DNA of 39,300 nucleotides. Origin: Escherichia phage vB_EcoP_F. The notes below the pieces were generated by a model. The model did no database searches, was not told the DNA's origin, and saw only the letters and a list, made by a program, of their open reading frames with translations. The stretch lies in sequence record NC_047808.1; one strand, written 5' to 3'. A program made the position numbers and the translations under genes. Of this stretch, positions 1 to 39,300 are shown in pieces; positions within the stretch are counted from its first letter, which is position 1, and the number at the start of each line of letters is the position of its first letter.

Positions 1-581
1 ATAACGCCACGAAGAACAACCGAGCGATGGACGCTGCCCTGTCCACTGTGATCTCTATGGGTCTTGCTGGTATCTACTACATGGCTCAGGCTCATGTCAA
101 GGCTTACGCTATGCAGGATGGTCGAGACCGTGACTACCTCAAGCAAGCTCTAGACCCGACGATGATTGGATATGCAGCTCTATCACGTAGTTCACACCTT
201 GGTGGACCACTTGGGGTAGCTAACATTCTGGGTGGCATCGCTGGGTATGAGGACACTAAGATGCTCCGTTCGTCTATCCTACCTCGTTCGCCTACAGAGA
301 AGCCTGAACGTGCCATCGCGTATGGTGCAGCTACAAGTGACCCTGTGATGAATGTTGTTGGTAACTTCTTGGAGCAGGTTCCAGCTTTCGGATATGCTGC
401 TAACGTTGGCGCTTCGGCTTACAACTTGGCTGGCTACCTCAAGGCTGATACTCGTGTCAACGAGCGTGACTACATGACCGGGATGTATAATACGTTCCGT
501 GAACTGGTTCCGAACGACCCAATTACCCAGAAGCTGTTGCTTGGGATGTTTGAGGAGCAAGGTATCCACATCAAGGACTAA
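1..581 (+). CDS. internal virion (core) protein gp16, C-terminal part; 5' truncated by window start, same gene as 35995..39300
   Basis: Track ORF 27..581 is open in frame back to nt 3; translation (..NATKNNRAMDAALSTVISMGLAG..VPNDPITQKLLLGMFEEQGIHIKD) matches recalled T7 gp16 C-terminus; gene order 15-16-17. Confidence 0.85.
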   Translation, partial: NATKNNRAMDAALSTVISMGLAGIYYMAQAHVKAYAMQDGRDRDYLKQALDPTMIGYAALSRSSHLGGPLGVANILGGIAGYEDTKMLRSSILPRSPTEKPERAIAYGAATSDPVMNVVGNFLEQVPAFGYAANVGASAYNLAGYLKADTRVNERDYMTGMYNTFRELVPNDPITQKLLLGMFEEQGIHIKD

Positions 582-7517: not shown

Positions 7518-7715
7518 TCTCACAGTTCAAGAACCTCAAGTCTCCCCATAGGCCCTCTTTAAGTCCAGACCAAAGGCCCTACCCAGTCTATCATAAGGCT
7601 GGACCGATGGTCGACGATAGGTCTAGGCTATGGCTGGAGGTCAGGACGATAGGTAGGGACTATTGGTCTGTCTCTGAGTCTCTATCTGTATAGTGATATA
7701 GTATAACATTACGTC
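7518..7715 (+). other. predicted physical genome terminus and terminal-repeat region (single collapsed copy); left end predicted at 7518
   Basis: TCTCACAGTTCAAGAACC..CCCCATAGG at 7518 resembles recalled T7/T3 left-terminal sequence (TCTCACAG..); non-coding; flanked by short-repeat arrays; right boundary not determinable. Confidence 0.3.
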
Positions 7716-7815
7716 CTACACCTACAGTCCTACACCTACAGTCCTACAACCTACAGTCCTACAACCTACAGTCACAACCATAAGACACCAACACCTACAG
7801 TCATAGACCTACAGT
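7716..7815 (+). repeat. array of imperfect short tandem repeats (unit approx CCTACA[A]CCTACAGT, 14-15 bp period)
   Basis: cctacacctacagtcctacacctacagtcctacaacctacagtcctacaacctacagtc.. seen directly; position equals T7 left-end short-repeat array. Confidence 0.5.
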
Positions 7816-7926
7816 TAATAGACACACAGCTATAGACTTAAGGTCAAAGACATGTTAGTCAAAGACTATATCCTCTTACACCATGAGGCCGACGATAGCT
7901 CAATCAATATTATTTCGAATTACCTA

Positions 7927-17813: not shown

Positions 17814-19517
<1,704 letters not shown>

Positions 19518-19550
19518 TTACGAGAAGTATAAATGGAGGGTTCCATTCTA

Positions 19551-19856
19551 ATGTTACGAAAACTTAAAGCTCGCTACCATCGGTTCATGTACAAATGGTG
19601 GAGTGACGAAGCAACCTGCCTGTCCAACATTCTGGGAGACCAAAGGTTCGAAGGCGTGGGGAGGGTAAAGCTCGCTACCATCGGTTCATGTACAAATGGT
19701 GGAGTGACGAAGCAACCTGCCTGTCCAACATTCTGGGAGACCAAAGGTTCGACTCCGAGGCGTGGAAGAGAGCTAACCGGAAGTTTATGTATCACTTCTT
19801 GCGTACAGACTTCTAGGTCTAGACTCAAGGTCATTCATAGCGAGTGGCCTGTATGA
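19551..19856 (+). CDS. hypothetical protein ORF altered by an internal 101-bp tandem duplication (gene 4.x region)
   Basis: GGAGGG RBS before ATG 19551; reading passes through repeat copy 1 in one frame and copy 2 in another. Confidence 0.3.
   Translation: MLRKLKARYHRFMYKWWSDEATCLSNILGDQRFEGVGRVKLATIGSCTNGGVTKQPACPTFWETKGSTPRRGRELTGSLCITSCVQTSRSRLKVIHSEWPV
19565..19766 (+). repeat. tandem direct duplication, period 101 bp, 87 bp identical (19565..19651 = 19666..19752)
   Basis: Seen directly: TAAAGCTCGCTACCATCGGTTCATGTACAAATGGTGGAGTGACGAAGCAACCTGCCTGTCCAACATTCTGGGAGACCAAAGGTTCGA twice. Confidence 0.85.
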
Positions 19857-19870
19857 TTAGACTAAAGCGG
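19814..19870 (+). promoter_or_regulatory. candidate RNase III site (R4.7 position) with motif TAGACTCAAGGTCAT
   Basis: Motif at 19820..19834 in intergenic leader of gene 5. Confidence 0.3.
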
Positions 19871-19880
19871 AGGATTAACC

Positions 19881-22052
19881 ATGTTTGACTTTAAGAGTAT
19901 CTGGGGTTCTGACATCGAGACCAACGGTCTCCTTGATACAGTCTCCCAGTTTCACTGTGGGGTCCTGATTAACGCCGAGTCGAATGAGACCCTTAAGTAT
20001 GGGGTAGCTCCGATGGTCGGTATCGTCGGCGGCTTCAAAGAGTATGTTCATAAAGTGGAAGAGATTGCCGCATCACCTGATGGTATGCTGGTATTCCATA
20101 ACGGTATCAACTATGACGTCCCGGCTATAGACAAGCTGAAGCGTTTGTACTTTGGGAAACGCTTTAACTTCCCGAAACATAAGATGATTGATACCTTGGT
20201 GCTGGGACGCTTGATGTATCCAAACATTAAGTTCTCAGACATGGGCGCAGTGAAAGCTGGTCGTCTGCCACCTAAGATGATGGGACGCCAGTCTCTTGAG
20301 GCTTGGGGCTATCGTCTCGGTGAGATGAAAGGTGAGTACAAACACGATTACGTTGCCAAGTGCAAGGCTGAAGGTATCGAATATAAGGCTGGGGACGAAT
20401 GGTTGTTCCCGTCTCAGGAGATGCTGGACTATAACGTTCAAGACGTTGTGGTCACACTGGCGTTGTTCAAGAAGTTCCTGACTGACAAGTATTACTTCCA
20501 GTCTGAACAGTTCGCTTTCGACCAGATTTATGCGTTGCGTCTGGAACATGATGCTGCGTGGACCTGTGCGAAGATGGAACGTAACGGCTATCCGATGAAC
20601 ACCGAGATGGTCGAAGGTTTATATCGTGAACTCACCGTCAAACGTGCAGAGCTGCTGGACAAGCTGCGTTCGACTTTCGGCAGCTGGTACGCACCAAAGG
20701 GAGGCAAGGAGTTCTTCAAGCACCCACGGACAGGCAAGGACCTTCCGAAGTATCCGCGCGTCGTGTATCCTAAGGTCGGGTCAGTATTCAAGAAGCCGAA
20801 GAACAAAGCTCAACGCTTAGGTCTGGAGCCTTGCGAGTTCGACTCACGAGACACGATGGAGGGAGCGCCGTTCACACCTATCACTTACGTTGAGTTTAAT
20901 CCGGGAAGCGGGGACCACTTAGCGAAAGTTCTGATGGAGCGTGGCTGGGAGCCTGTGGACTTCACTGACACCGGGAAACCTGTAGTCGATGACGAGACGT
21001 TGGAACACGTTAAGTTACCAGACGCAGAGGCTCAGGCTTGCGTAGAGCTGGTCCGTGAATATCTGGTGGTCCAGAAGCGCATCGGTCAGGCTGCTGAAGG
21101 TAAGAACGCATGGTTGAAACTTGTAGGTCCAGACGGGCGTATGCACGGTTCAATCAACCCATGCGGGGCAGTAACCGGACGTGCGACTCACAGTTCACCA
21201 AACATGGCTCAGGTCCCGGCTAACGGTGCTCCATACGGTGAGACTTGCCGTGGTGCTTTCGGTGCAGCGTGGAACAAGAAGGACGGTACGCCAGACCCTT
21301 GGATTCAAGTAGGCGTGGATGCTTCAGGTCTTGAGCTTCGTTGTCTGGGGAACCGAGCGGCTCCGTTTGATGGTGGCGCCTATGCGAAGACTGTGGTCGA
21401 AGGTGACATCCACTGGGCCAACGCAGTCAACGCTGGGTTAGCACCTAACGTCCCACGCAATAAGTCCAGCCACGACCATGATGCTTTCCGTAACAACGCT
21501 AAGACGTTCATCTATGCGTTCCTATATGGTGCAGGGGCCGCGAAGATTGGACTGATAGTTGGCGGTGGTAAGAAGGAAGGTGCTGCCCTGATGAAGAAAT
21601 TCATTGAGGGTACACCAGCTATTAAAGACCTCAGGGAAGCTGTGAGTAATACGTTAATCTCCGAATCCAAATGGGTAGATGGAGAGAACATCGTGAAGTG
21701 GAAACGTCGCTGGCTGAAAGGTCTGGATGGTCGCCGTATCCACATCCGGTCTCCACACTCAGCACTAAACGCATTACTTCAAGGCGATGGTGCGGTTGTC
21801 TGTAAGCACTGGATTGTAGAGACTGAACGTATGCTTGAAGAGGCAGGGTATGTTCACGGCTGGGAGGGGGACTTCGCGTACATGGCCTGGGTTCACGACG
21901 AATTGCAGATTGCGTGCCGTACTCAGGAGATTGCCGAAGAAGTCGTCAAGATTGCTCAACTTGCTATGCGTAAGGTGGGTGAGTTCTATAACTTTAAATG
22001 TGTCCTTGATACCGAAGGTAAGATTGGACCAACGTGGAAGGAGTGTCACTAA
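19881..22052 (+). CDS. DNA polymerase gp5 (family A, with 3'-5' exonuclease)
   Basis: 723 aa; position and size as T7 gp5; GGAGG RBS. Confidence 0.95.
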   Translation: MFDFKSIWGSDIETNGLLDTVSQFHCGVLINAESNETLKYGVAPMVGIVGGFKEYVHKVEEIAASPDGMLVFHNGINYDVPAIDKLKRLYFGKRFNFPKHKMIDTLVLGRLMYPNIKFSDMGAVKAGRLPPKMMGRQSLEAWGYRLGEMKGEYKHDYVAKCKAEGIEYKAGDEWLFPSQEMLDYNVQDVVVTLALFKKFLTDKYYFQSEQFAFDQIYALRLEHDAAWTCAKMERNGYPMNTEMVEGLYRELTVKRAELLDKLRSTFGSWYAPKGGKEFFKHPRTGKDLPKYPRVVYPKVGSVFKKPKNKAQRLGLEPCEFDSRDTMEGAPFTPITYVEFNPGSGDHLAKVLMERGWEPVDFTDTGKPVVDDETLEHVKLPDAEAQACVELVREYLVVQKRIGQAAEGKNAWLKLVGPDGRMHGSINPCGAVTGRATHSSPNMAQVPANGAPYGETCRGAFGAAWNKKDGTPDPWIQVGVDASGLELRCLGNRAAPFDGGAYAKTVVEGDIHWANAVNAGLAPNVPRNKSSHDHDAFRNNAKTFIYAFLYGAGAAKIGLIVGGGKKEGAALMKKFIEGTPAIKDLREAVSNTLISESKWVDGENIVKWKRRWLKGLDGRRIHIRSPHSALNALLQGDGAVVCKHWIVETERMLEEAGYVHGWEGDFAYMAWVHDELQIACRTQEIAEEVVKIAQLAMRKVGEFYNFKCVLDTEGKIGPTWKECH

Positions 22053-22210
22053 TGGCTAAAACTTATAGTGAGCAGGAGGTCAAAGACCTGATGCGGTCAG
22101 CTTGGTGGTGTGGACACGAGGAGTCTCGTTATAGTCCAAACCTCAGTGGTTCATGCAGTCAAGACATTCATGAAATCCTGAAAGAACATAACGAAGAAGG
22201 AGAAGGCTAA
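22052..22210 (+). CDS. hypothetical protein, 52 aa
   Basis: TAATG overlap with gene 5 stop; GGAAGGAG RBS; own translation MAKTYSEQEVKDLMRSAWWCGHEESRYSPNLSGSCSQDIHEILKEHNEEGEG. Confidence 0.45.
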   Translation: MAKTYSEQEVKDLMRSAWWCGHEESRYSPNLSGSCSQDIHEILKEHNEEGEG

Positions 22211-22500
22211 TGGCTATTACTAAACGTATGCGAGTTTCATTCTCGCTTGGCGCTGTACTGTCTACTGAAGAAGTTGAGCACTTCAAGAAGTCTCTCTGTG
22301 AGTTGAGCCGTAAGGTTCTCAATGGTGAGAAGACCACTGGCTTCGAGCGTAAGATGGTCGAGGTCGGCGTTACAGATGGTCTGGAAGCTGTGGTAGAGCT
22401 TGTCTTTAAGAAGGGTATTGTTGATGGTCTGAAAGAAGACCTGAGTCATTATGCTGACAAGCCCAGCTTCGGAGACTTCCGAGTGGAGTTCAAGCAATGA
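22210..22500 (+). CDS. gp5.5-like protein (T7 gp5.5 binds H-NS)
   Basis: 96 aa; N-terminus MAITKRMRVSF resembles recalled T7 gp5.5; TAATG coupling. Confidence 0.5.
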   Translation: MAITKRMRVSFSLGAVLSTEEVEHFKKSLCELSRKVLNGEKTTGFERKMVEVGVTDGLEAVVELVFKKGIVDGLKEDLSHYADKPSFGDFRVEFKQ

Positions 22501-22706
22501 GTGAATACTTACGGGTCCTAGCGGCCCTTAAGTCCTGCCCGAAGACCTTCCAGTCCAACTATGTGCGCAACAACGCTGCACTTGTGGCTGAGGCTGCGAG
22601 TCGTGGACATCTAAGCTGCCTGTCTATGGATGGGCGTAACAACGGTGCGTGGGAGATTACCGCTGAAGGCACCAAGTTCCTGAACCAACACGGAGGCTGT
22701 CTATGA
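22497..22706 (+). CDS. gp5.7-like protein
   Basis: 69 aa; LKSCPKTFQSNYVRNNAALVAEAASRGH matches recalled T7 gp5.7. Confidence 0.6.
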   Translation: MSEYLRVLAALKSCPKTFQSNYVRNNAALVAEAASRGHLSCLSMDGRNNGAWEITAEGTKFLNQHGGCL

Positions 22707-23152
22707 AGATACCTGAAAGTCTGAAAGAGCTGGTCCTTGAAATGGGTGAGTGCGAGATGACGCACCGTAAGTATGCTGAGTTCTACGCATCTTGGTCTTA
22801 CACCCTGACCGAGAAGGACGTTGAGTCCTACACCGAGTCTCCTTCTGAGGCTTATGAGTGGAGTCCGTTCATCGGACTGACCATCGTAGCTAGCGGTATG
22901 TGGGATGACAGCTACGGCTCAGAGGTAAACGACTGGGACGTGTACCGCCAAGTTGAGAAGGAGACCGAAATGTCTTCCAACTTCTGGAGCCTGATGTCCC
23001 ACCTCAACTCAGATGACAACGACATGGCCCATGAGTTCGCCAACAAATGGCTGAAGCCTGAGGTGACTCTGGAACGTATTGAGGAGCCTAAAGTTCCCTT
23101 GATGCCATATGCAGTCGCTATGGCTACAGGAGGTCTGGACGATGGGTGCTGA
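22703..23152 (+). CDS. hypothetical acidic Trp-rich protein, 149 aa, at gene 5.9 position
   Basis: Track ORF; ATGA coupling; no resemblance to the 52-aa T7 gp5.9. Confidence 0.5.
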   Translation: MKIPESLKELVLEMGECEMTHRKYAEFYASWSYTLTEKDVESYTESPSEAYEWSPFIGLTIVASGMWDDSYGSEVNDWDVYRQVEKETEMSSNFWSLMSHLNSDDNDMAHEFANKWLKPEVTLERIEEPKVPLMPYAVAMATGGLDDGC

Positions 23153-24011
23153 GAAGAAGATAGCTCTTGTTCTTGATGGCGATTACCTAGTATTCTCTTC
23201 TATGGCTGCTGCCGAGGACGAGACAGACTGGGGTGATGACATCTGGACCCTTATCTGCGACCACGAGAAGGCTCGCCGTATCCTTGAGAACACCATCGCT
23301 GAAATCGTTAAGAAGCGCAAGGCGTGGAAAGACGCTAAGATTGTGATGTGCTTTACTGATGATAACAACTGGCGTAAGGACGTTTTGCCTACCTATAAGG
23401 CTAACCGTAAGGGTTCTCGCAAGCCTGTAGGTTACAAGAAGTTCGTAGCCGAAGTGATGGCTGACCCACGGTTCAACAGCTTCCTGCGTCCAACGCTTGA
23501 GGGTGATGATTGTATGGGTATCATCGGGACCAGACCTCAGATTGTCGGATGCGACCATGCGGTGCTGGTGTCCTGCGATAAGGACTTCAAGACCATCCCG
23601 AACTGTGAGTTCTTCTGGTTAACCACTGGTGAAATCCTGAGTCATACGACTTCCGAGGCAGACTACTGGCACATGGAGCAGACCATCAAGGGTGACACTA
23701 CAGATGGCTACGGCGGTATTCCGGGGATGGGTGAGGACACCACTCGTGCATTCCTTGACGAACCGTATTACTTCGTGCAGGAGAGCCGCGAGCTTAAGAC
23801 TGGCAAGAACAAAGGCCAGATTAAGACTGAGTGGAAGAAGTATCCGAAGCGTGAAGACATGACGCTGTGGGACTGCATGGTTACACTGGCTGCTAAGGCT
23901 GGCATGACCGAGGAGGAACTTCTGGTCCAAGCTCAGGTCGCTCGTATTTGTCGAGCATCTGACTATGACCCTAAGTCCAAGGAGGTCATCCTATGGACAC
24001 CATCCATGTAA
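23142..24011 (+). CDS. 5'-3' exonuclease gp6
   Basis: Start set to ATG 23142 (AGGAGG RBS); LVLDGDYLVFSSMAAAE resembles T7 gp6 N-terminus. Confidence 0.9.
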   Translation: MGAEKKIALVLDGDYLVFSSMAAAEDETDWGDDIWTLICDHEKARRILENTIAEIVKKRKAWKDAKIVMCFTDDNNWRKDVLPTYKANRKGSRKPVGYKKFVAEVMADPRFNSFLRPTLEGDDCMGIIGTRPQIVGCDHAVLVSCDKDFKTIPNCEFFWLTTGEILSHTTSEADYWHMEQTIKGDTTDGYGGIPGMGEDTTRAFLDEPYYFVQESRELKTGKNKGQIKTEWKKYPKREDMTLWDCMVTLAAKAGMTEEELLVQAQVARICRASDYDPKSKEVILWTPSM

Positions 24012-24085
24012 TTTACTGGGTCGGACTTCTTGCCCTTTACTGCATGTACAAGGGGTTCGGGTCGAACAACCGCCCTAAACACTGA
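23993..24085 (+). CDS. hypothetical small membrane peptide, 30 aa (gene 6.3 position)
   Basis: AGGAGG at 23980..23985; MDTIHVIYWVGLLALYCMYKGFGSNNRPKH; overlaps end of gene 6 out of frame. Confidence 0.4.
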   Translation: MDTIHVIYWVGLLALYCMYKGFGSNNRPKH

Positions 24086-24137
24086 GTCTAGCCGATAGTC
24101 ATATCCTATCAATCCAACAGTCATCCATAGGTGAAAC

Positions 24138-24160
24138 ACTAAACTATCACTATAGGGACT
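24138..24160 (+). promoter_or_regulatory. phage RNA polymerase promoter (phi6.5 position), ACTAAACTATCACTATAGGGACT
   Basis: Full consensus, GGG start (late class). Confidence 0.75.
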
Positions 24161-24221
24161 TTAGGACCTAAGATATGACTATAAGATAGACTTTAGTCTT
24201 AACTTAAAGAGGAGATTCAAG

Positions 24222-24494
24222 ATGGCTCTTAATGCTATTGAAAACGTTGTTAAGCAGTTACAGGAAGAAAGACTCGATGTCCCTAACATCTCCCAGTCTG
24301 CCATCCAGTTCCTGCACGTATTGTTCAACGCAAGCTATGCTGAGAAGATGGGAGCTATCAGTCTCCTCAAGCAGCAAGGCTACAGCGATGCGTTCATTGC
24401 CGGGTTCATCAAGGGTCTCCAGTATTGTTCTGACACTCTCGACTCTGCGATTGCTATGCGTCGTGAGCTGAAAGATACCGTTCAGTTTGATTAA
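24222..24494 (+). CDS. hypothetical protein at gene 6.5 position, 90 aa
   Basis: Track ORF; GAGGAG RBS. Confidence 0.5.
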   Translation: MALNAIENVVKQLQEERLDVPNISQSAIQFLHVLFNASYAEKMGAISLLKQQGYSDAFIAGFIKGLQYCSDTLDSAIAMRRELKDTVQFD

Positions 24495-24508
24495 CTGTAG
24501 GAGGGACT

Positions 24509-24733
24509 ATGTGTTTCAGTCCAAAGATTAGCACTCCGAAGCCTTCGGTCCAAGCACCTGAACCAGCACCTCTGAGTGAGGAAGTTGCGTCAGTTGACAT
24601 CGGGGCTGAATCGGATGTTGACACCAACGAGACCAAAGGTATCAAAGACCTGAAGGTCAAGAAGGAGTCTGCACCTAAAGATAAATCGTCAGTTAGCCGC
24701 GCTATGCGAGCCTCTGGCGTCAACATGGGGTAA
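24509..24733 (+). CDS. gp6.7-like virion protein
   Basis: 74 aa; MCFSPKISTPK..EPAPLSEEV matches recalled T7 gp6.7. Confidence 0.65.
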   Translation: MCFSPKISTPKPSVQAPEPAPLSEEVASVDIGAESDVDTNETKGIKDLKVKKESAPKDKSSVSRAMRASGVNMG

Positions 24734-24737
24734 GACA

Positions 24738-25142
24738 ATGCTACCATATCTCAACTCACGCGAAGGTCGCCACATGTGCGCTTGTCGCCTCTGGGAAGAC
24801 GGGCAGTCTAACTTCAAGTCATTCGAGGACTTCAAGGCTCATACTTACCGTATGGCTGACGAGTTCGATGGTGAAGAGTACACAATCTACGATGTCTCAG
24901 GTCAACCAGTAGCGTATCTCTACATGCTGGCTACCGCATCTTGGCACCGACCGACTCCCGGTCTTGACCTTTCAATCGTCGCTATTCGTCGTGACTCGCA
25001 GTCCTCCCGTAAGGTTCTTGAGACTGTCAGGCACATCATAGACGAAGAGTGCAAGCGTTGGGGTCTTGGCTGGTATTCTCGTGTCAAGCATGTTTCCGGG
25101 TCGGTAGACATCGTAACAACTAAGGAGATTAATCATGGGTAA
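24738..25142 (+). CDS. hypothetical protein at gene 7 position, 134 aa
   Basis: Track ORF; start uncertain (alternative ATG 24774 has a better RBS). Confidence 0.5.
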   Translation: MLPYLNSREGRHMCACRLWEDGQSNFKSFEDFKAHTYRMADEFDGEEYTIYDVSGQPVAYLYMLATASWHRPTPGLDLSIVAIRRDSQSSRKVLETVRHIIDEECKRWGLGWYSRVKHVSGSVDIVTTKEINHG

Positions 25143-25383
25143 ATCAATCAGTAAGGCATTCAAGAAAGTGGTGAAAAGTACGCTAGGGACCGTTGGTCTT
25201 GGCTCTGATGACGCACCTAAGGTTGTTGAGGCTCAGACCCCAGCAGCACCAGTGGAAGTACCGAACGACAAAGTGGAGGATGTGGATACTGAAACAACCG
25301 CATCTGACGAGAAGAAAGTGAAGCGTTCCGGTAAGCGTAGCCTTCAGGTCTCTCGTACCTCTGGTGGCGGTATTTCTATTTAA
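25135..25383 (+). CDS. gp7.3-like tail/adsorption protein
   Basis: 82 aa; C-terminus SLQVSRTSGGGISI matches recalled T7 gp7.3. Confidence 0.65.
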   Translation: MGKSISKAFKKVVKSTLGTVGLGSDDAPKVVEAQTPAAPVEVPNDKVEDVDTETTASDEKKVKRSGKRSLQVSRTSGGGISI

Positions 25384-25394
25384 GGAGGTGACGA

Positions 25395-26963
25395 ATGGCT
25401 GAACGTGAAGGGTTCGCTGCTGAAGGAGCCAAAGCGGTCTATGACCGACTGAAGAACGGTAGACAGCCATATGAGACACGCGCTCAGAACTGTGCTGCTG
25501 TCACTATCCCGTCACTGTTTCCTAAGGAGTCCGACAACTCGTCTACTGAGTACACAACTCCGTGGCAAGCTGTAGGTGCTCGCTGTTTGAACAACTTGGC
25601 TGCAAAGCTGATGCTGGCATTATTCCCTCAGTCACCGTGGATGCGACTTACAGTCTCCGAATATGAGGCCAAGACCTTGAGTCAGGACTCAGAGGCTGCT
25701 GCTCGTGTTGACGAAGGGCTTGCTATGGTCGAGCGTGTGTTGATGGCCTACATGGAGACTAACAGTTTCCGTGTGCCATTGTTCGAAGCTCTGAAGCAGC
25801 TTATCGTCTCCGGTAACTGTCTGCTTTACATTCCAGAGCCTGAACAGGGTACTTACAGTCCTATGCGAATGTACCGCTTAGTGTCCTACGTTGTTCAACG
25901 TGATGCTTTCGGTAATATCTTGCAGATTGTGACTCTCGACAAGGTAGCGTTTAGTGCTCTACCGGAAGACGTTAAGTCACAACTCAACGCAGACGACTAT
26001 GAGCCTGACACAGAGCTGGAAGTATATACGCACATCTACCGTCAAGACGACGAGTATCTACGTTATGAGGAAGTGGAAGGCATTGAGGTGGCAGGGACCG
26101 AGGGTTCCTACCCACTGACTGCATGTCCATACATCCCGGTACGAATGGTTCGACTGGATGGTGAAGACTATGGTCGTTCTTACTGCGAGGAGTATCTGGG
26201 AGACCTGAACTCGCTGGAGACGATTACAGAAGCTATCACCAAAATGGCTAAGGTAGCCTCCAAGGTGGTGGGCCTCGTTAACCCGAACGGTATCACGCAA
26301 CCTCGTCGTCTGAACAAGGCGGCTACAGGTGAGTTCGTTGCCGGTCGCGTTGAGGACATCAACTTCCTGCAACTGACTAAGGGTCAGGACTTTACGATTG
26401 CCAAGTCGGTGGCTGATGCTATCGAGCAACGTTTAGGCTGGGCCTTCCTTCTTAATAGTGCTGTTCAGCGTAATGCCGAGCGAGTCACTGCTGAAGAGAT
26501 TCGTTATGTTGCTGGCGAACTGGAGGCGACCTTAGGTGGCGTGTACTCAGTACAATCCCAAGAGCTTCAGTTACCTATCGTCCGTGTGCTGATGAACCAA
26601 CTTCAGTCTGCTGGCATGATTCCTGACCTTCCGAAAGAAGCGGTAGAGCCTACTGTCTCCACTGGTCTGGAAGCGTTAGGTCGTGGTCAGGACTTGGAGA
26701 AGCTAACTCAGGCGGTTAACATGATGACTGGTCTTCAGCCGCTATCTCAGGACCCGGACATCAACTTGCCGACCCTTAAGCTACGACTCCTGAACGCTCT
26801 GGGCATCGACACCGCTGGCCTACTCCTGACGCAAGACGAGAAGATTCAGCGCATGGCTGAGCAGTCGTCTCAACAGGCAGTTGTCCAAGGTGCTAGTGCT
26901 GCTGGTGCTAACATGGGTGCTGCTGTAGGTCAGGGAGCTGGTGAGGACATGGCTCAAGCCTAA
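25395..26963 (+). CDS. head-tail connector (portal) protein gp8
   Basis: 522 aa; position and size as T7 gp8; AGGAGG RBS. Confidence 0.9.
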   Translation: MAEREGFAAEGAKAVYDRLKNGRQPYETRAQNCAAVTIPSLFPKESDNSSTEYTTPWQAVGARCLNNLAAKLMLALFPQSPWMRLTVSEYEAKTLSQDSEAAARVDEGLAMVERVLMAYMETNSFRVPLFEALKQLIVSGNCLLYIPEPEQGTYSPMRMYRLVSYVVQRDAFGNILQIVTLDKVAFSALPEDVKSQLNADDYEPDTELEVYTHIYRQDDEYLRYEEVEGIEVAGTEGSYPLTACPYIPVRMVRLDGEDYGRSYCEEYLGDLNSLETITEAITKMAKVASKVVGLVNPNGITQPRRLNKAATGEFVAGRVEDINFLQLTKGQDFTIAKSVADAIEQRLGWAFLLNSAVQRNAERVTAEEIRYVAGELEATLGGVYSVQSQELQLPIVRVLMNQLQSAGMIPDLPKEAVEPTVSTGLEALGRGQDLEKLTQAVNMMTGLQPLSQDPDINLPTLKLRLLNALGIDTAGLLLTQDEKIQRMAEQSSQQAVVQGASAAGANMGAAVGQGAGEDMAQA

Positions 26964-26981
26964 ACTATCACTATAGGAACA
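26959..26981 (+). promoter_or_regulatory. phage RNA polymerase promoter (phi9 position), CCTAAACTATCACTATAGGAACA
   Basis: Consensus match; gene 8 stop TAA inside promoter. Confidence 0.75.
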
Positions 26982-27071
26982 ACACAACTTGAGTGAGTGA
27001 ACGCATAGCCAGCCGTAACGGGAGGGCAGGTTGTTGTGTTTCCTATTAACGACTTAAAGGAGAATGACTTA

Positions 27072-27956
27072 ATGTCTCAATCAGTTTATGCCGAGTTCGG
27101 CGTTAGCTCTAATGCAATCACTGGTTCCGTTGAGGACCTGAACGAACACCAGAAGTCTATGCTTGAACAGGACGTAGCTGTTCGTGATGGCGATGACGCT
27201 ATTACCTTCAAGCAACTGGAAGCCGAAAACGAAGAGGCGACCGAAGAAGACGAGAACGTCGAAGAGACTGGGGGTGATGAAGACAACGAGTCCGATGACG
27301 AAGAGTCGGAGGACGATGGTGAGCAGCCTGAGTTCATCGAACTGGGTGATGCACCGAAAGATCTGACCGAAAGTGTCACCGCTCTGGATGAAAACGAAGC
27401 TGCATTTGACGACATGGTGTCTTCTGCTGTAGAAGCTGGCAAGGTCACTGCTGATGAAATTACCGCTATCAAGGCTGAATACGCCAAGGACGGTAAGCTG
27501 TCTGACGCATCCTACGCTAAGTTGCAGGAAGCAGGTTACACCAAGCGCTTCGTAGATTCGTTTGTCCGTGGTCAGGAAGCTCTGGCTGAACAGTATGCCG
27601 CTGGTGTGGTTCGCTACGCTGGTGGTGCTGAACAGTTTAATCGCATCCTGTCACACCTTGAGGCCAACGACCCGTCAACTCGTGAAGCACTGGAAGCTGC
27701 TATCGTTCGTAAGGACATTGCGACTACCAAAGCTCTGCTGAATCTGGCTGGCAAGACTCTGGGTAAAGCTGTGGGTGTTAAACCTCAGCGTACCATCACC
27801 ACTCAGGCTAAACCTGTGGTCGCACCTAAGGCTCCTCAGACCGAAGCATTCAGCTCCAAGGCTGACATGATTAAGGCTATGAGTGACCCGCGATACCTGC
27901 GTGACGCTAAGTACACGATGGAAGTTCGCGCTAAGGTAGCCGCCTCAAGCCTGTAG
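27072..27956 (+). CDS. capsid assembly (scaffolding) protein gp9
   Basis: Start set to ATG 27072 (AAAGGAG RBS); acidic; SYAKLQEAGYTKRFVDSFVRGQEAL and KAMSDPRY match recalled T7 gp9. Confidence 0.85.
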   Translation: MSQSVYAEFGVSSNAITGSVEDLNEHQKSMLEQDVAVRDGDDAITFKQLEAENEEATEEDENVEETGGDEDNESDDEESEDDGEQPEFIELGDAPKDLTESVTALDENEAAFDDMVSSAVEAGKVTADEITAIKAEYAKDGKLSDASYAKLQEAGYTKRFVDSFVRGQEALAEQYAAGVVRYAGGAEQFNRILSHLEANDPSTREALEAAIVRKDIATTKALLNLAGKTLGKAVGVKPQRTITTQAKPVVAPKAPQTEAFSSKADMIKAMSDPRYLRDAKYTMEVRAKVAASSL

Positions 27957-27957
27957 G

Positions 27958-27980
27958 ACTAAACTATCACTATAGGGAGA
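27958..27980 (+). promoter_or_regulatory. phage RNA polymerase promoter (phi10 position), ACTAAACTATCACTATAGGGAGA
   Basis: Best consensus copy; GGGAGA initiating region as in T7 phi10. Confidence 0.85.
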
Positions 27981-28082
27981 CCAAGAGATAGACTCAAGGT
28001 TTCCCTATTACTTCAGTCCATACGGATTGGGCATACAGTAAGTAATACACTTTATCTTTCAATTGAATAGGAGAATTATCAT

Positions 28083-35994: not shown

Positions 35995-38900
35995 ATGGCG
36001 ACTCGTGGTATTCGCAATAACAATCCGGGTAACATCCGGGTAAGTAAGGACCAATGGGAAGGAATGACTGGAGATGATGGCGCATTTGTCACCTTCGATA
36101 GTCCAGAGTCTGGCGTCCGAGCTTTAGGTAAAAACCTGCTGTCCTACGGTCGCCGAGGTTATGACTCCATCGAGAAGATTATCAACCGATGGGCACCTCC
36201 TAACGAGAACGACACTAAGGCTTATATCGACTCAGTGGTGGCTGCAACTGGTATTCCAGCTACCCAGAGTCTCGACCTATCGGACCCTGACACCCTGTCT
36301 TCTCTGGCTCAAGCTATCAGCTTCCATGAGACAGGCTCCCGGTACGACCCTGAAGTCTATCAGAAGGGAGTCGCACGAGCACTCAATGGCATTAGCCCAA
36401 AGACTCCACCAGTAAGCGCTAACGTATTTGACGCACTCACGGAAGGACTCAAGGCTAAACCTAAAGTAGCTCTGGGCGAGAACCTTCCGACCGCTGCTGG
36501 TCTAAACATTGAGGGTCAAGCACCTGAAGCTCCCAACGAATCGTTCGGTGAGATGTTCTATAAGTCTACTGGCGAGACCATGCAGGAACGAGAGGATCGC
36601 TCTACGTGGTTCGGTTTCGGCTCGGCTACAGAAGCTGAAGTGAAGAACTCTATGGTCGGCGTGGCTATCCGCGCTGGTCAGACCGAGGACTCACTTGATG
36701 TCATTGGCGATGTGTTCAACCCTACCCGCTGGAACAACCATAAGTGGACTCGTGAAGAGCTTGACCAGATTCGTAACGCTGGGGTTCTGCCTCAGTATTA
36801 CGGAGTAATTACTGGCGGTTCTCCTCAGAATCTGACAGAGCTGATCAACTTGGCGTTGGAGAACCAGAAGTTGGACCAAGAGAAGGCCAAGGCTGGGACT
36901 GGTGCTCAGTTAGCTGCTGGTGTGATTGGCGCTGGTGTGGATCCTCTGACCTACGTTCCTATCGCTGGACAGATTGGTAAGGGTGGCAAGCTGGTCAACA
37001 AGATGTTCACCGTTGCTGCTCAATCTGGAGCACTTGCTGGTGTATCAGAGATGGCCCGTACCTCAGTGGCTGGTGGTGATGCTCATGTGGCTGAGGCTAT
37101 CCTTGGCGGTGCTCTCTTCGGCGGAGGCATGACTGCTATCGCTGATGGTTTAGGCAGAGCCTTAGGTCGCAACACTAATGAGTTCGCTGGCCCAGCTACA
37201 CGTCTGGAAGCTCGTGAGACCGCTCGTAACATTGATGGTCAGGACCTGTCTCGTCTCCCTATTCAGGAAGGTGAGCAGACCTTTAGTCATCAAGGCGTTA
37301 AGTTCGCCGACGTTCCGAATGAGCCTGGTAGTGTGCGGCTGGAGGATGGTTCAATCCTGATTGGTGAGAACCCTCTGAACCCTAAGACACGTAAGGTCTT
37401 TGACGAAGTGATTGAGCCTGAACGGGCCGCTGCTGGTGTGAACCTTGGTGGTCTGACTGAGATTGGCCTGAAGCTGCTTCGGTCTGAGAACCCTGAGATT
37501 CGTGGAGTAGCTGCTGACTTAGTGCGTTCACCGACTGGTATGCAGTCTGGGGCCTCAGGTAAAATCGGGACCACTGCGTCTGACGTATTCGAGAGACTTC
37601 GTGCTGTGGACCATCGGTTCTACAATGACATCGACGATGCGGTTACTGAGGCCCTAAAGGACCCGTACTTCCAGACAGCATTCTGGCGAGACTCTGGAGC
37701 ATTCCGTCAGGACATCTACCAGCGTGTGTCTATGGCTATCGAAGATGGTAGCGGAAACCTGAAGGCTGAACTGACTCCGGGAGAACTGAAAGTCTATGAC
37801 CTGCTGAAGAACCAGTTTGACGCCAAGCGTGAGATGATGGAGAACCCGGCGATGTTTGGTCGTCCAGACGCTCAGTCTATCTTTCCGGGCAGCCGCTTCA
37901 AGGGAACCTACGTCCCGCATGTGTATAGCAACCAGATGAAGGAGCTGTACATCAAGGAGCTTGGGAGTCCAGAGGCACTACAGGAGGCCATCAAGAAGTC
38001 ATGGTTGACCAGCTATGCGTCTCGACCTGAGGTCAAGAAACGTGTGGACGAGGCACTCTTAGAGGCTGACCCTACGTTGACTCCAGAAGGACTTGCGGCT
38101 GCGGTCGATAAGTACGCCAACGATAAGGCTTATGGTATCTCTCACACCGAGCAGTTCGAGCGTTCATCCGTAATGGAAGAGAACATCAATGGTCTGGTGG
38201 GTCTGGAGAACAACAGCTTCCTTGAGGCTCGTAACCTGTTCGATAGCGATATGTCAATCGTCCTACCTAACGGTCAGACCTTCAGTGTCAACAACCTGCG
38301 TGAGTGGGACATGGACAAGATTGTCCCGGCCTACAACCGTCGAGTTAATGGCGATATTGCTATCATGGCTGGTACAGGCAAGACCACGAAGGACATGAAG
38401 GACTTGGTTGAGACCATGATGAACAAGGCTGGGGATGACGGTAAGTTGAAAGGTGAAGTATCTACCTTACGTGACACCTTGAAGATTCTAACTGGTCGTG
38501 CTCGACGTGATGGTGCTGATGATGCAGCCTTCGCTACCGTGATGCGCACAATGACAGACCTATCGTTCTTCGCTAAGAATGCCTACATGGGTGTTCAGAA
38601 CTTAACGGAGATTGGTGGTATGCTGGCTCGTGGCAACGTTCGTGCAATGCTGCATGGAGTCCCAATTTTCCGTGACCTAGCCTTCCGTAACAAGAAGGTT
38701 GGGGCCTCAGAGATTAAGGACCTGCACAATGTTATCTTCGGTAAGGAACTGGATGACTCAATCCGTCCGTCTAAACAGGATGTCATTGACCGTCTGCGAT
38801 CTTACAGTGACCTCGGTCGTGGTACAGCTACAGCTCTGGGGACTGCCAAGTATTACACTGGCGAACTTGCAGTACGCTCTCCGTTCACTAAAGTCCTCAA

Positions 38901-39300
38901 CGGTACGACCAACTACCTGTTAGATGCTGGACGTCAAGGCTTCCTGTCTGACATCGTGGAGCATAGCCTGACTGGTAGTAAGCGTAAGTTCGATGACCGC
39001 TGGCTTAAGACCGCTGGTATCTCTGACGAGCAGTGGAAGGGCATTAAGTCCCTCATCCGTGAGTCAGTGACTCGTGGTCCAGACGGGAAGTACACCATCA
39101 AGGATAAGAAGGCGTTCAGTCAGGACCCAAGGGCTATGGACCTATGGCGTATGGGTGATACCATCGCTGACGAAACGTTACTACGTCCTCATAAGCTGTC
39201 CAACATGGACGCAAAGGCTTATGGTCCTCTCGCTAAGACTGTCCTTCAGTTTAAGAACTTCGTCATCAAGTCCATCAATGGACGTACCATGCGAACCTTC
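35995..39300 (+). CDS. internal virion (core) protein gp16, N-terminal part; 3' truncated by window end, continues at window start
   Basis: Open frame from ATG 35995 to last base (1102 codons, no stop), which is why it is absent from the ORF track; end ..VLQFKNFVIKSINGRTMRTF aligns with recalled T7 gp16 just upstream of the residues at window start. Confidence 0.9.
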   Translation, partial: MATRGIRNNNPGNIRVSKDQWEGMTGDDGAFVTFDSPESGVRALGKNLLSYGRRGYDSIEKIINRWAPPNENDTKAYIDSVVAATGIPATQSLDLSDPDTLSSLAQAISFHETGSRYDPEVYQKGVARALNGISPKTPPVSANVFDALTEGLKAKPKVALGENLPTAAGLNIEGQAPEAPNESFGEMFYKSTGETMQEREDRSTWFGFGSATEAEVKNSMVGVAIRAGQTEDSLDVIGDVFNPTRWNNHKWTREELDQIRNAGVLPQYYGVITGGSPQNLTELINLALENQKLDQEKAKAGTGAQLAAGVIGAGVDPLTYVPIAGQIGKGGKLVNKMFTVAAQSGALAGVSEMARTSVAGGDAHVAEAILGGALFGGGMTAIADGLGRALGRNTNEFAGPATRLEARETARNIDGQDLSRLPIQEGEQTFSHQGVKFADVPNEPGSVRLEDGSILIGENPLNPKTRKVFDEVIEPERAAAGVNLGGLTEIGLKLLRSENPEIRGVAADLVRSPTGMQSGASGKIGTTASDVFERLRAVDHRFYNDIDDAVTEALKDPYFQTAFWRDSGAFRQDIYQRVSMAIEDGSGNLKAELTPGELKVYDLLKNQFDAKREMMENPAMFGRPDAQSIFPGSRFKGTYVPHVYSNQMKELYIKELGSPEALQEAIKKSWLTSYASRPEVKKRVDEALLEADPTLTPEGLAAAVDKYANDKAYGISHTEQFERSSVMEENINGLVGLENNSFLEARNLFDSDMSIVLPNGQTFSVNNLREWDMDKIVPAYNRRVNGDIAIMAGTGKTTKDMKDLVETMMNKAGDDGKLKGEVSTLRDTLKILTGRARRDGADDAAFATVMRTMTDLSFFAKNAYMGVQNLTEIGGMLARGNVRAMLHGVPIFRDLAFRNKKVGASEIKDLHNVIFGKELDDSIRPSKQDVIDRLRSYSDLGRGTATALGTAKYYTGELAVRSPFTKVLNGTTNYLLDAGRQGFLSDIVEHSLTGSKRKFDDRWLKTAGISDEQWKGIKSLIRESVTRGPDGKYTIKDKKAFSQDPRAMDLWRMGDTIADETLLRPHKLSNMDAKAYGPLAKTVLQFKNFVIKSINGRTMRTF

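Follow-up and report, generated by a model that had tools for sequence, protein, structure and literature searches.

A 101-bp tandem insertion interrupts a conserved 54-codon gene in the genome record of Escherichia phage vB_EcoP_F

In T7-type phages, spontaneous deletions and duplications have their joins at short direct repeats, with a few bases of microhomology. An 87-bp perfect direct repeat in a T7-like phage is expected to be recombinationally unstable, and a duplication of this kind can therefore only be young. Gene 10A/10B of T7-like phages is subject to programmed frameshifting. In the genus Kayfunavirus, K1F-like phages carry a small gene between gene 4 and gene 5; the homologues are 54 aa long, and some of them are named gp4.3 (for example, EcoDS1 ACF15803.1 and K1F YP_424937.1), a name that is positional as regards T7 gp4.3. 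The literature on T7 duplications yielded nothing directly usable for the present case. The assembler SPAdes operates by default with k values of 21, 33, 55, 77, 99, and 127.

The window analyzed in this study is the whole 39,300-nucleotide genome record of Escherichia phage vB_EcoP_F (hereafter F; GenBank KY295894, RefSeq NC_047808; reads, 617,472 pairs, under ENA sample ERS1810217). Megablast matches placed F among the T7-like phages of the genus Kayfunavirus, K1F group. The host names given in several near-identical Kayfunavirus records (Acinetobacter, Enterococcus, and Staphylococcus phages) look unreliable. Phage F belongs to the K1 phage collection of Smith and Huggins (1982) from the UK, and good growth with a burst size of 213 has been reported (PMC5582158). 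It was sequenced with Nextera XT on a MiSeq (2x250), and the reads were subsampled to approximately 250x and assembled de novo into one contig by using SPAdes 3.6.2; to close the contig, its ends were linked by Ns, and remapped reads supplied the bases in their place (PMC5582158).

Direct reading and a repeat search revealed two identical 87-bp copies at 19565-19651 and 19666-19752, with a period of 101 bp. Tandem Repeats Finder reported 19565..19752 as the one strong tandem array in the window (period 101, 1.9 copies, 100% matches, score 376), and a second repeat search recovered the same pair, with identity dropping only beyond base 87. The copies lie head-to-tail and agree at 87 of 87 positions, as in a tandem duplication, and an exact repeat of this length cannot have arisen by chance. 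The inserted material amounts to 101 bp, of which 87 bp are the exact duplicate and 14 bp a filler. The sequence spanning the duplication junction is GGTTCGAAGGCGTGGGGAGGGTAAAGCTCG; in the single-copy configuration, the left flank, ending in ACGAAAACT, is followed by one unit and then by CTCCGAGGCGTGGAAGAG. The features of the locus are as follows.

17817..19517, + strand: gene 4, primase-helicase, 566 aa (ORF; AQT25422.1 / YP_009789099.1)
19535..19540, + strand: Shine-Dalgarno sequence GGAGGG, 10 nt before the ATG at 19551 (direct reading)
19551..19856, + strand: chimeric ORF, 101 aa, stop TGA at 19854-19856 (ORF list)
19565..19651, + strand: copy 1 of the 87-bp exact repeat (Tandem Repeats Finder, repeat search)
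19652..19665, + strand: filler AGGCGTGGGGAGGG, 14 bp (direct reading)
19666..19752, + strand: copy 2 of the 87-bp exact repeat (Tandem Repeats Finder, repeat search)
19688..19816, + strand: native-frame remnant, 42 aa, from Met13 to TAG at 19814-19816 (ORF list)
19816..19863, + strand: conserved stem-loop (RNA fold, -21.4 kcal/mol, z -2.1)
19881..22052, + strand: gene 5, DNA polymerase, 723 aa (ORF; AQT25423.1), preceded by GGAGG at 19869-19873

The ORF list contains a frame of 107 aa at 19533..19856 (+), within which the internal ATG at 19551 gives the 101-aa form. Since 101 mod 3 is 2, translation passes through copy 2 in the +1 frame. Residues 1-33 of the chimera are native and gp4.3-like, and the last 66 or so derive from the filler, the +1 frame of copy 2, and the DNA beyond. 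When 19652-19752 was deleted from the sequence, a 54-aa protein ending at the TAG at 19814-19816 was obtained. The 42-aa remnant corresponds to residues 13-54 of this restored protein, and no Shine-Dalgarno sequence lies ahead of it at 19688..19816. The first-pass annotation had described an 87-bp repeat with a 101-bp period, a 101-aa chimera starting at ATG 19551 that reads the two copies in different frames and ends at 19856, a 54-aa ORF restored by removing one unit, and a small gene downstream of the primase-helicase. This description proved correct throughout: the repeat was confirmed, the ORF list bore out the chimera, the deletion reproduced exactly the proposed protein with its stop at 19814-19816, and the small gene does sit between 17817..19517 and 19881..22052.

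We compared the restored and the chimeric proteins with known protein families. The restored protein matched PHROG 13039 over positions 1-54 of 54 (E 4.9e-39), whereas the chimera matched positions 1-35 only (E 1.7e-23), short of the full profile. The position of the small gene between gene 4 and gene 5 is also that of PHROG 13039. The F gene is a disrupted member of this family. No CDS is annotated between gene 4 and gene 5 in the F record, since AQT25422.1 and AQT25423.1 are consecutive. The restored 54-aa sequence is identical to a protein of phage Esher2 and to that encoded by two metagenome/Logan contigs. The gene was extracted from 39 relatives (loci drawn from GenBank, IMG/VR, ENA, and Logan), and in all 39 it comprises exactly 54 codons, with ATG, GTG, or TTG as the start. 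Across these loci, the variable sites at codon positions 1, 2, and 3 number 14, 10, and 38, and this distribution indicates that the native frame is under purifying selection.

The 54-aa family has no Pfam family and no sequence relative in the PDB, and its helical-hairpin model had no Foldseek match in the PDB. The AlphaFold family model (pLDDT 80) comprises a basic two-helix hairpin, with helices at residues 2-28 and 36-51. According to this model, the frame break would land in the turn joining the helices, and the second helix would be lost. The homologue in phage LS3, also 54 aa long, is named 'protein suppressor of silencing', a label that looks unreliable.

The conserved stem-loop at 19816-19863 follows the native stop and precedes the ribosome-binding site of gene 5, and the chimeric ORF passes through it before stopping at 19854-19856. 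In phage ASO2B, the annotation calls the equivalent stem-loop a terminator. The position of the stem-loop would also suit an RNase III site of the T7 R5 kind, and it is conceivable that read-through of the structure affects the expression of the DNA polymerase. Phage F carries a private G at 19851, inside the stem-loop. Neither a sigma-70 promoter nor an intrinsic terminator was predicted in 19300-20100, and no Rfam family was found in the window. Ten sites resembling phage-RNA-polymerase promoters were identified.

583, 6840, 9733, 12800, and 14459, + strand: phage-RNA-polymerase promoter-like sites, CTATCACTATAGGA/G
15440, 24144, 26965, 27964, and 32608, + strand: further promoter-like sites of the ten, CTATCACTATAGGA/G

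Because no phage promoter or promoter-like site lies between 15440 and 24144, a single long class II unit seems to span genes 2.5 to 6. Elsewhere in the window, an imperfect 14-nt array (GTCCTACACCTACA, approximately 7 copies) occupies 7713-7823, in the region that separates the terminase gene from the early genes; a T7-like phage is expected to have its genome ends and terminal repeat there. In relatives, the interval between gp4.3 and gene 5, as well as gene 5 itself, is a recurrent landing site of HNH homing-endonuclease genes. Such insertions were observed in six relatives, L007 (CR44b), L040, L046, L048, L036, and L038, and F has none; examples are '7.7B' in CR44b and, in L036 and L038, an HNH ORF that comes after a DNA polymerase ORF of 672 aa.

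The distribution of the duplicated arrangement was examined among related genomes. In the first search, the top records other than vB_EcoP_FFK3 (hereafter FFK3; ON548433.1) all aligned in two pieces, covering approximately 330-370 bp versus 451 bp, which marks them as single-copy. A junction-centered blastn search of 50,697 phage records returned 125 records, among which the alignment was contiguous solely in FFK3, and 124 GenBank phage records are single-copy. The single-copy form was also found in the 31 loci that were fetched and in 13 more (approximately 44 in total), and the filler junction was absent from the IMG/VR and JGI metagenomes. The nearest sequences at the locus, ENA ERZ809152 NODE_200 and Logan SRR22877825_1792, are both single-copy and are 99.7% identical to F over 3184 nt, with 0 gaps after one unit is removed. 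Because contigs this similar are single-copy, the duplication would post-date a very shallow split, and the 100% identity of the copies agrees with a young event. The first-pass annotation had offered two options, a recent duplication in a probably non-essential class II gene and an assembly artefact, and had suggested a comparison with related genomes for single-copy versions. These versions exist in abundance, and the alternative that it posed is supported by the privacy of the arrangement, the identity of the copies, the single-copy state of the closest relatives, and the full-length fit of the restored ORF to a conserved family of 54-aa proteins.

The junction itself was read directly. The first 8 nt of the filler equal 19758-19765, a stretch separated from copy 2 by 5 nt, and its last 6 nt with the next T form GGAGGGT, which matches 19535-19541 in the Shine-Dalgarno region of the gene itself. 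The junction is therefore a patchwork in which CTCCG (5 nt) is skipped, AGGCGTGG is copied from 5 nt downstream, and GGAGGG(T) follows. A second filler match was not found elsewhere in the window with up to 3 mismatches allowed, direct reading revealed no microhomology at the junction, and a secondary-structure test revealed no DNA hairpin accounting for the duplication endpoints (z -0.19). Simple slippage would leave a bare short direct repeat, and the junction instead carries the 14-nt filler. The closest usable microhomology is AGCT at 19568 and 19771; a slip between these sites would give an in-frame duplication of 102 bp with a different junction.

Taken together, we lean with modest confidence towards a recent 101-bp tandem insertion that is private to F and real in the sequenced stock. 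For this reading, the repeat, the frameshift, the privacy, the 54-codon conservation, and the native-frame selection come directly from the data. We infer that the duplication was present in the DNA rather than in the assembly alone, that a template switch generated it, and that the gene is dispensable. A genuine replication or recombination accident most probably occurred in phage F, perhaps through serial template switching by the replisome DNA polymerase and not through a clean slip; template switching is favored because the filler is a patchwork of two short local copies. The duplicated form would then have become the majority genotype of the sequenced laboratory stock. The insertion would shift the frame after codon 33, so that helix 2 is replaced by approximately 66 unselected residues, and a small accessory class II gene would thereby be inactivated, a loss that the phage would tolerate.

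A possible but less probable explanation is that the second unit and its filler are spurious and that the phage has one intact 54-codon gene, with a chimeric or minority read path threaded in by SPAdes or with an error introduced during manual finishing. Among approximately 170 relatives, the arrangement is unique to the F record, FFK3 aside, and the depositors annotated nothing at the locus. The junction, with the pattern GA-----AGGCGTGG and a G-rich patch next, resembles degraded local sequence, and its untidiness could reflect chimeric or poor-quality sequence, which counts against a real insertion. The same record also has a demonstrable finishing error, which counts in the same direction. 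At the record join, where the ends had been joined with Ns and filled from remapped reads, between positions 39300 and 1 in gp16, the F record lacks one T that Esher2 and LNA3 both have. In circular reading, this 1-nt deletion splits gp16 into a 1124-aa ORF on the 35996-39300 side and a separate ORF at 27..581, and it looks like a circularization or trimming error.

Several points nevertheless speak against an artefact and for a real insertion. The contig is the product of a de novo assembly, and 19.6 kb separate the repeat from the record join. An end overlap left by the assembler would be located at the join and have the length of a k-mer, whereas neither the 87-bp length nor the 101-bp period is a SPAdes default k, a comparison that is limited to the default values as the k values used for F are absent from the paper. 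A de Bruijn assembler cannot invent a 14-nt filler, and junction-spanning reads must therefore exist. With k 127, which exceeds the 101-bp period, a duplicated path would be expected to enter the main SPAdes contig only if it is substantially covered, and at 250x a rare chimera would be expected to be pruned as a low-coverage edge. We also looked for the exact proteins of F in public collections. Its exact large proteins occurred in the GenBank contig alone and in no Logan contig; of the other F-exact look-ups, one small protein was too widespread to help and one was not on record.

The FFK3 record bears on both readings. FFK3 comes from Kazakhstan and was published in 2022; the paper describes a SPAdes assembly, with vB_EcoP_F as the reference for setting the genome ends, and reports 100% coverage and 98.76% identity to F (PMC9697832). 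The record has a junction and period identical to those of F. It differs from F by 486 substitutions and 0 indels, and the two are colinear, with the same arbitrary start in gp16 and the same length of 39,300; the published identity exactly matches 486/39,300. Comparisons of F with Esher2, LNA3, and L036 yielded 0.03-0.05 indels per SNP, even in low-divergence segments, from which approximately 14-34 indels would be expected between FFK3 and F (Poisson P < 1e-6 for none). Within 22,000-28,000, the two records differ at a single position. At the locus, the FFK3 alleles are relative-like on both flanks and in copy 2, where FFK3 departs from F at 19675, 19705, and 19726 (alleles A/C/G), and are identical to those of F in copy 1 and the filler. 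Such a distribution of alleles would result if single-copy FFK3 reads had been placed on an F scaffold, the 101-nt gap had been left-aligned, and nothing but the substitutions had been carried over. Indels of relatives flanked by alleles shared with FFK3 were sought, and no informative case was found. On the evidence of the two records, ON548433.1 looks like a consensus in which only substitutions were written onto the F scaffold. It does not count as independent evidence, and the sole apparent confirmation of the duplication would thereby be removed, in line with an artefact. The first-pass annotation had held that related phages with the same duplicated arrangement and a conserved long ORF would speak against its reading; the arrangement does formally recur, in the non-independent FFK3 record, and the conserved long ORF does not.

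An older duplication that is truly present in both F and FFK3 and has been kept in a natural lineage is improbable. It would account for the identical junction and period and would fit the SPAdes assembly reported by the FFK3 authors, and the 486 differences do look natural, with 180 of 227 in large genes falling at codon position 3 and the alleles being common to other phages. It does not account for the lack of indels or for the identical start and length, and it requires a crossover to have fallen in the 9 bp that separate the filler from 19675. Moreover, closer relatives (99.7% locally) lack the duplication, whereas FFK3 (98-99%) has it. Read in the native frame, none of the five F/FFK3 differences at 19675-19778 changes the protein; read in the chimeric frame, four of them are non-synonymous, which argues that the long ORF is not the selected unit. 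More improbable still is that the duplication is real, shared by F and FFK3, and an unstable repeat selected for decades. If this were true, the benefit could be the loss of gp4.3, or it could come from ribosomes crossing the hairpin at 19816-19863 and terminating 25 nt upstream of the start of gene 5, a crossing that could alter DNA-polymerase expression.

The +1 frame of the small gene (19603-19856 in F) was compared among the same 39 relatives. It is open to codon 67 in 31 of them and is interrupted by stops at codons 27-64 in the other 8, so that it is not conserved as an overlapping gene would be. The chimera reaches 101 aa because this frame is open. In phage CR44b, the frame carries the annotation '4.22'; a conserved overlapping +1-frame gene of this type was considered and rejected on account of the earlier stops, and the +1 frame is probably not a gene. 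The chimeric tail of approximately 66 residues is unselected and basic, with no Pfam or PHROG match, and exact look-ups revealed that the 101-aa chimera is absent from a collection of 15 billion proteins and from all public contigs and that the 107-aa form and the 42-aa remnant are absent from public assemblies. A selected new product, whether the 101-aa chimera or a two-frame recoding, can accordingly be dismissed as extremely unlikely: although the +1 frame is open for 66 codons and annotated in CR44b and the chimeric ORF retains its ribosome-binding site, the frame is closed early in 8 relatives, the fusion occurs in no relative, the F/FFK3 substitutions are non-synonymous in it, and its tail and exact protein find no counterpart.

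These findings have consequences for the records concerned. The RefSeq record of vB_EcoP_F (NC_047808 / KY295894) contains a damaged version of a small conserved gene, neither the F nor the FFK3 record has an annotation at this locus, and ON548433.1 seems to inherit the lesion from its scaffold and not from its own reads. Studies of the Kayfunavirus pangenome or gene content that draw on these records would wrongly call gp4.3 absent. If the duplication is real, F would be a natural knock-out, and gp4.3 would be dispensable for a therapeutic K1 phage on a laboratory host, since F grows well. The value of the present analysis thus lies in record curation and, should the insertion be real, in a natural knock-out of a gene lacking an assigned function.

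We finally compared the locus with the systems described at the outset. Similar to gp4.3 of the K1F-like Kayfunavirus phages, the F gene lies between gene 4 and gene 5, and its restored sequence fills the whole family profile; in contrast to them, it is interrupted after codon 33, and the N-terminal helix alone is native. Like gene 10A/10B of T7-like phages, the locus joins two frames in one product. However, the change of frame in F is encoded in the DNA by an insertion that occurs in no relative, and the second frame is unconserved. An exact direct repeat with a filler is also what a k-mer-overlap duplication from the circular closure of a SPAdes contig would leave, and F was closed in that way; the F repeat is nevertheless far from the join, and the error at the join is one missing base instead. 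The likeness to classical T7-type duplications lies in a head-to-tail repeat of approximately 100 bp in a presumably non-essential class II region, with copies that are 100% identical and hence young. Unlike those events, the F junction has a 14-nt filler composed of two local copies and no usable microhomology, and this difference suggests either serial template switching or an artefact. The feature in F is an ordinary private lesion or an assembly error and represents no new kind of element.
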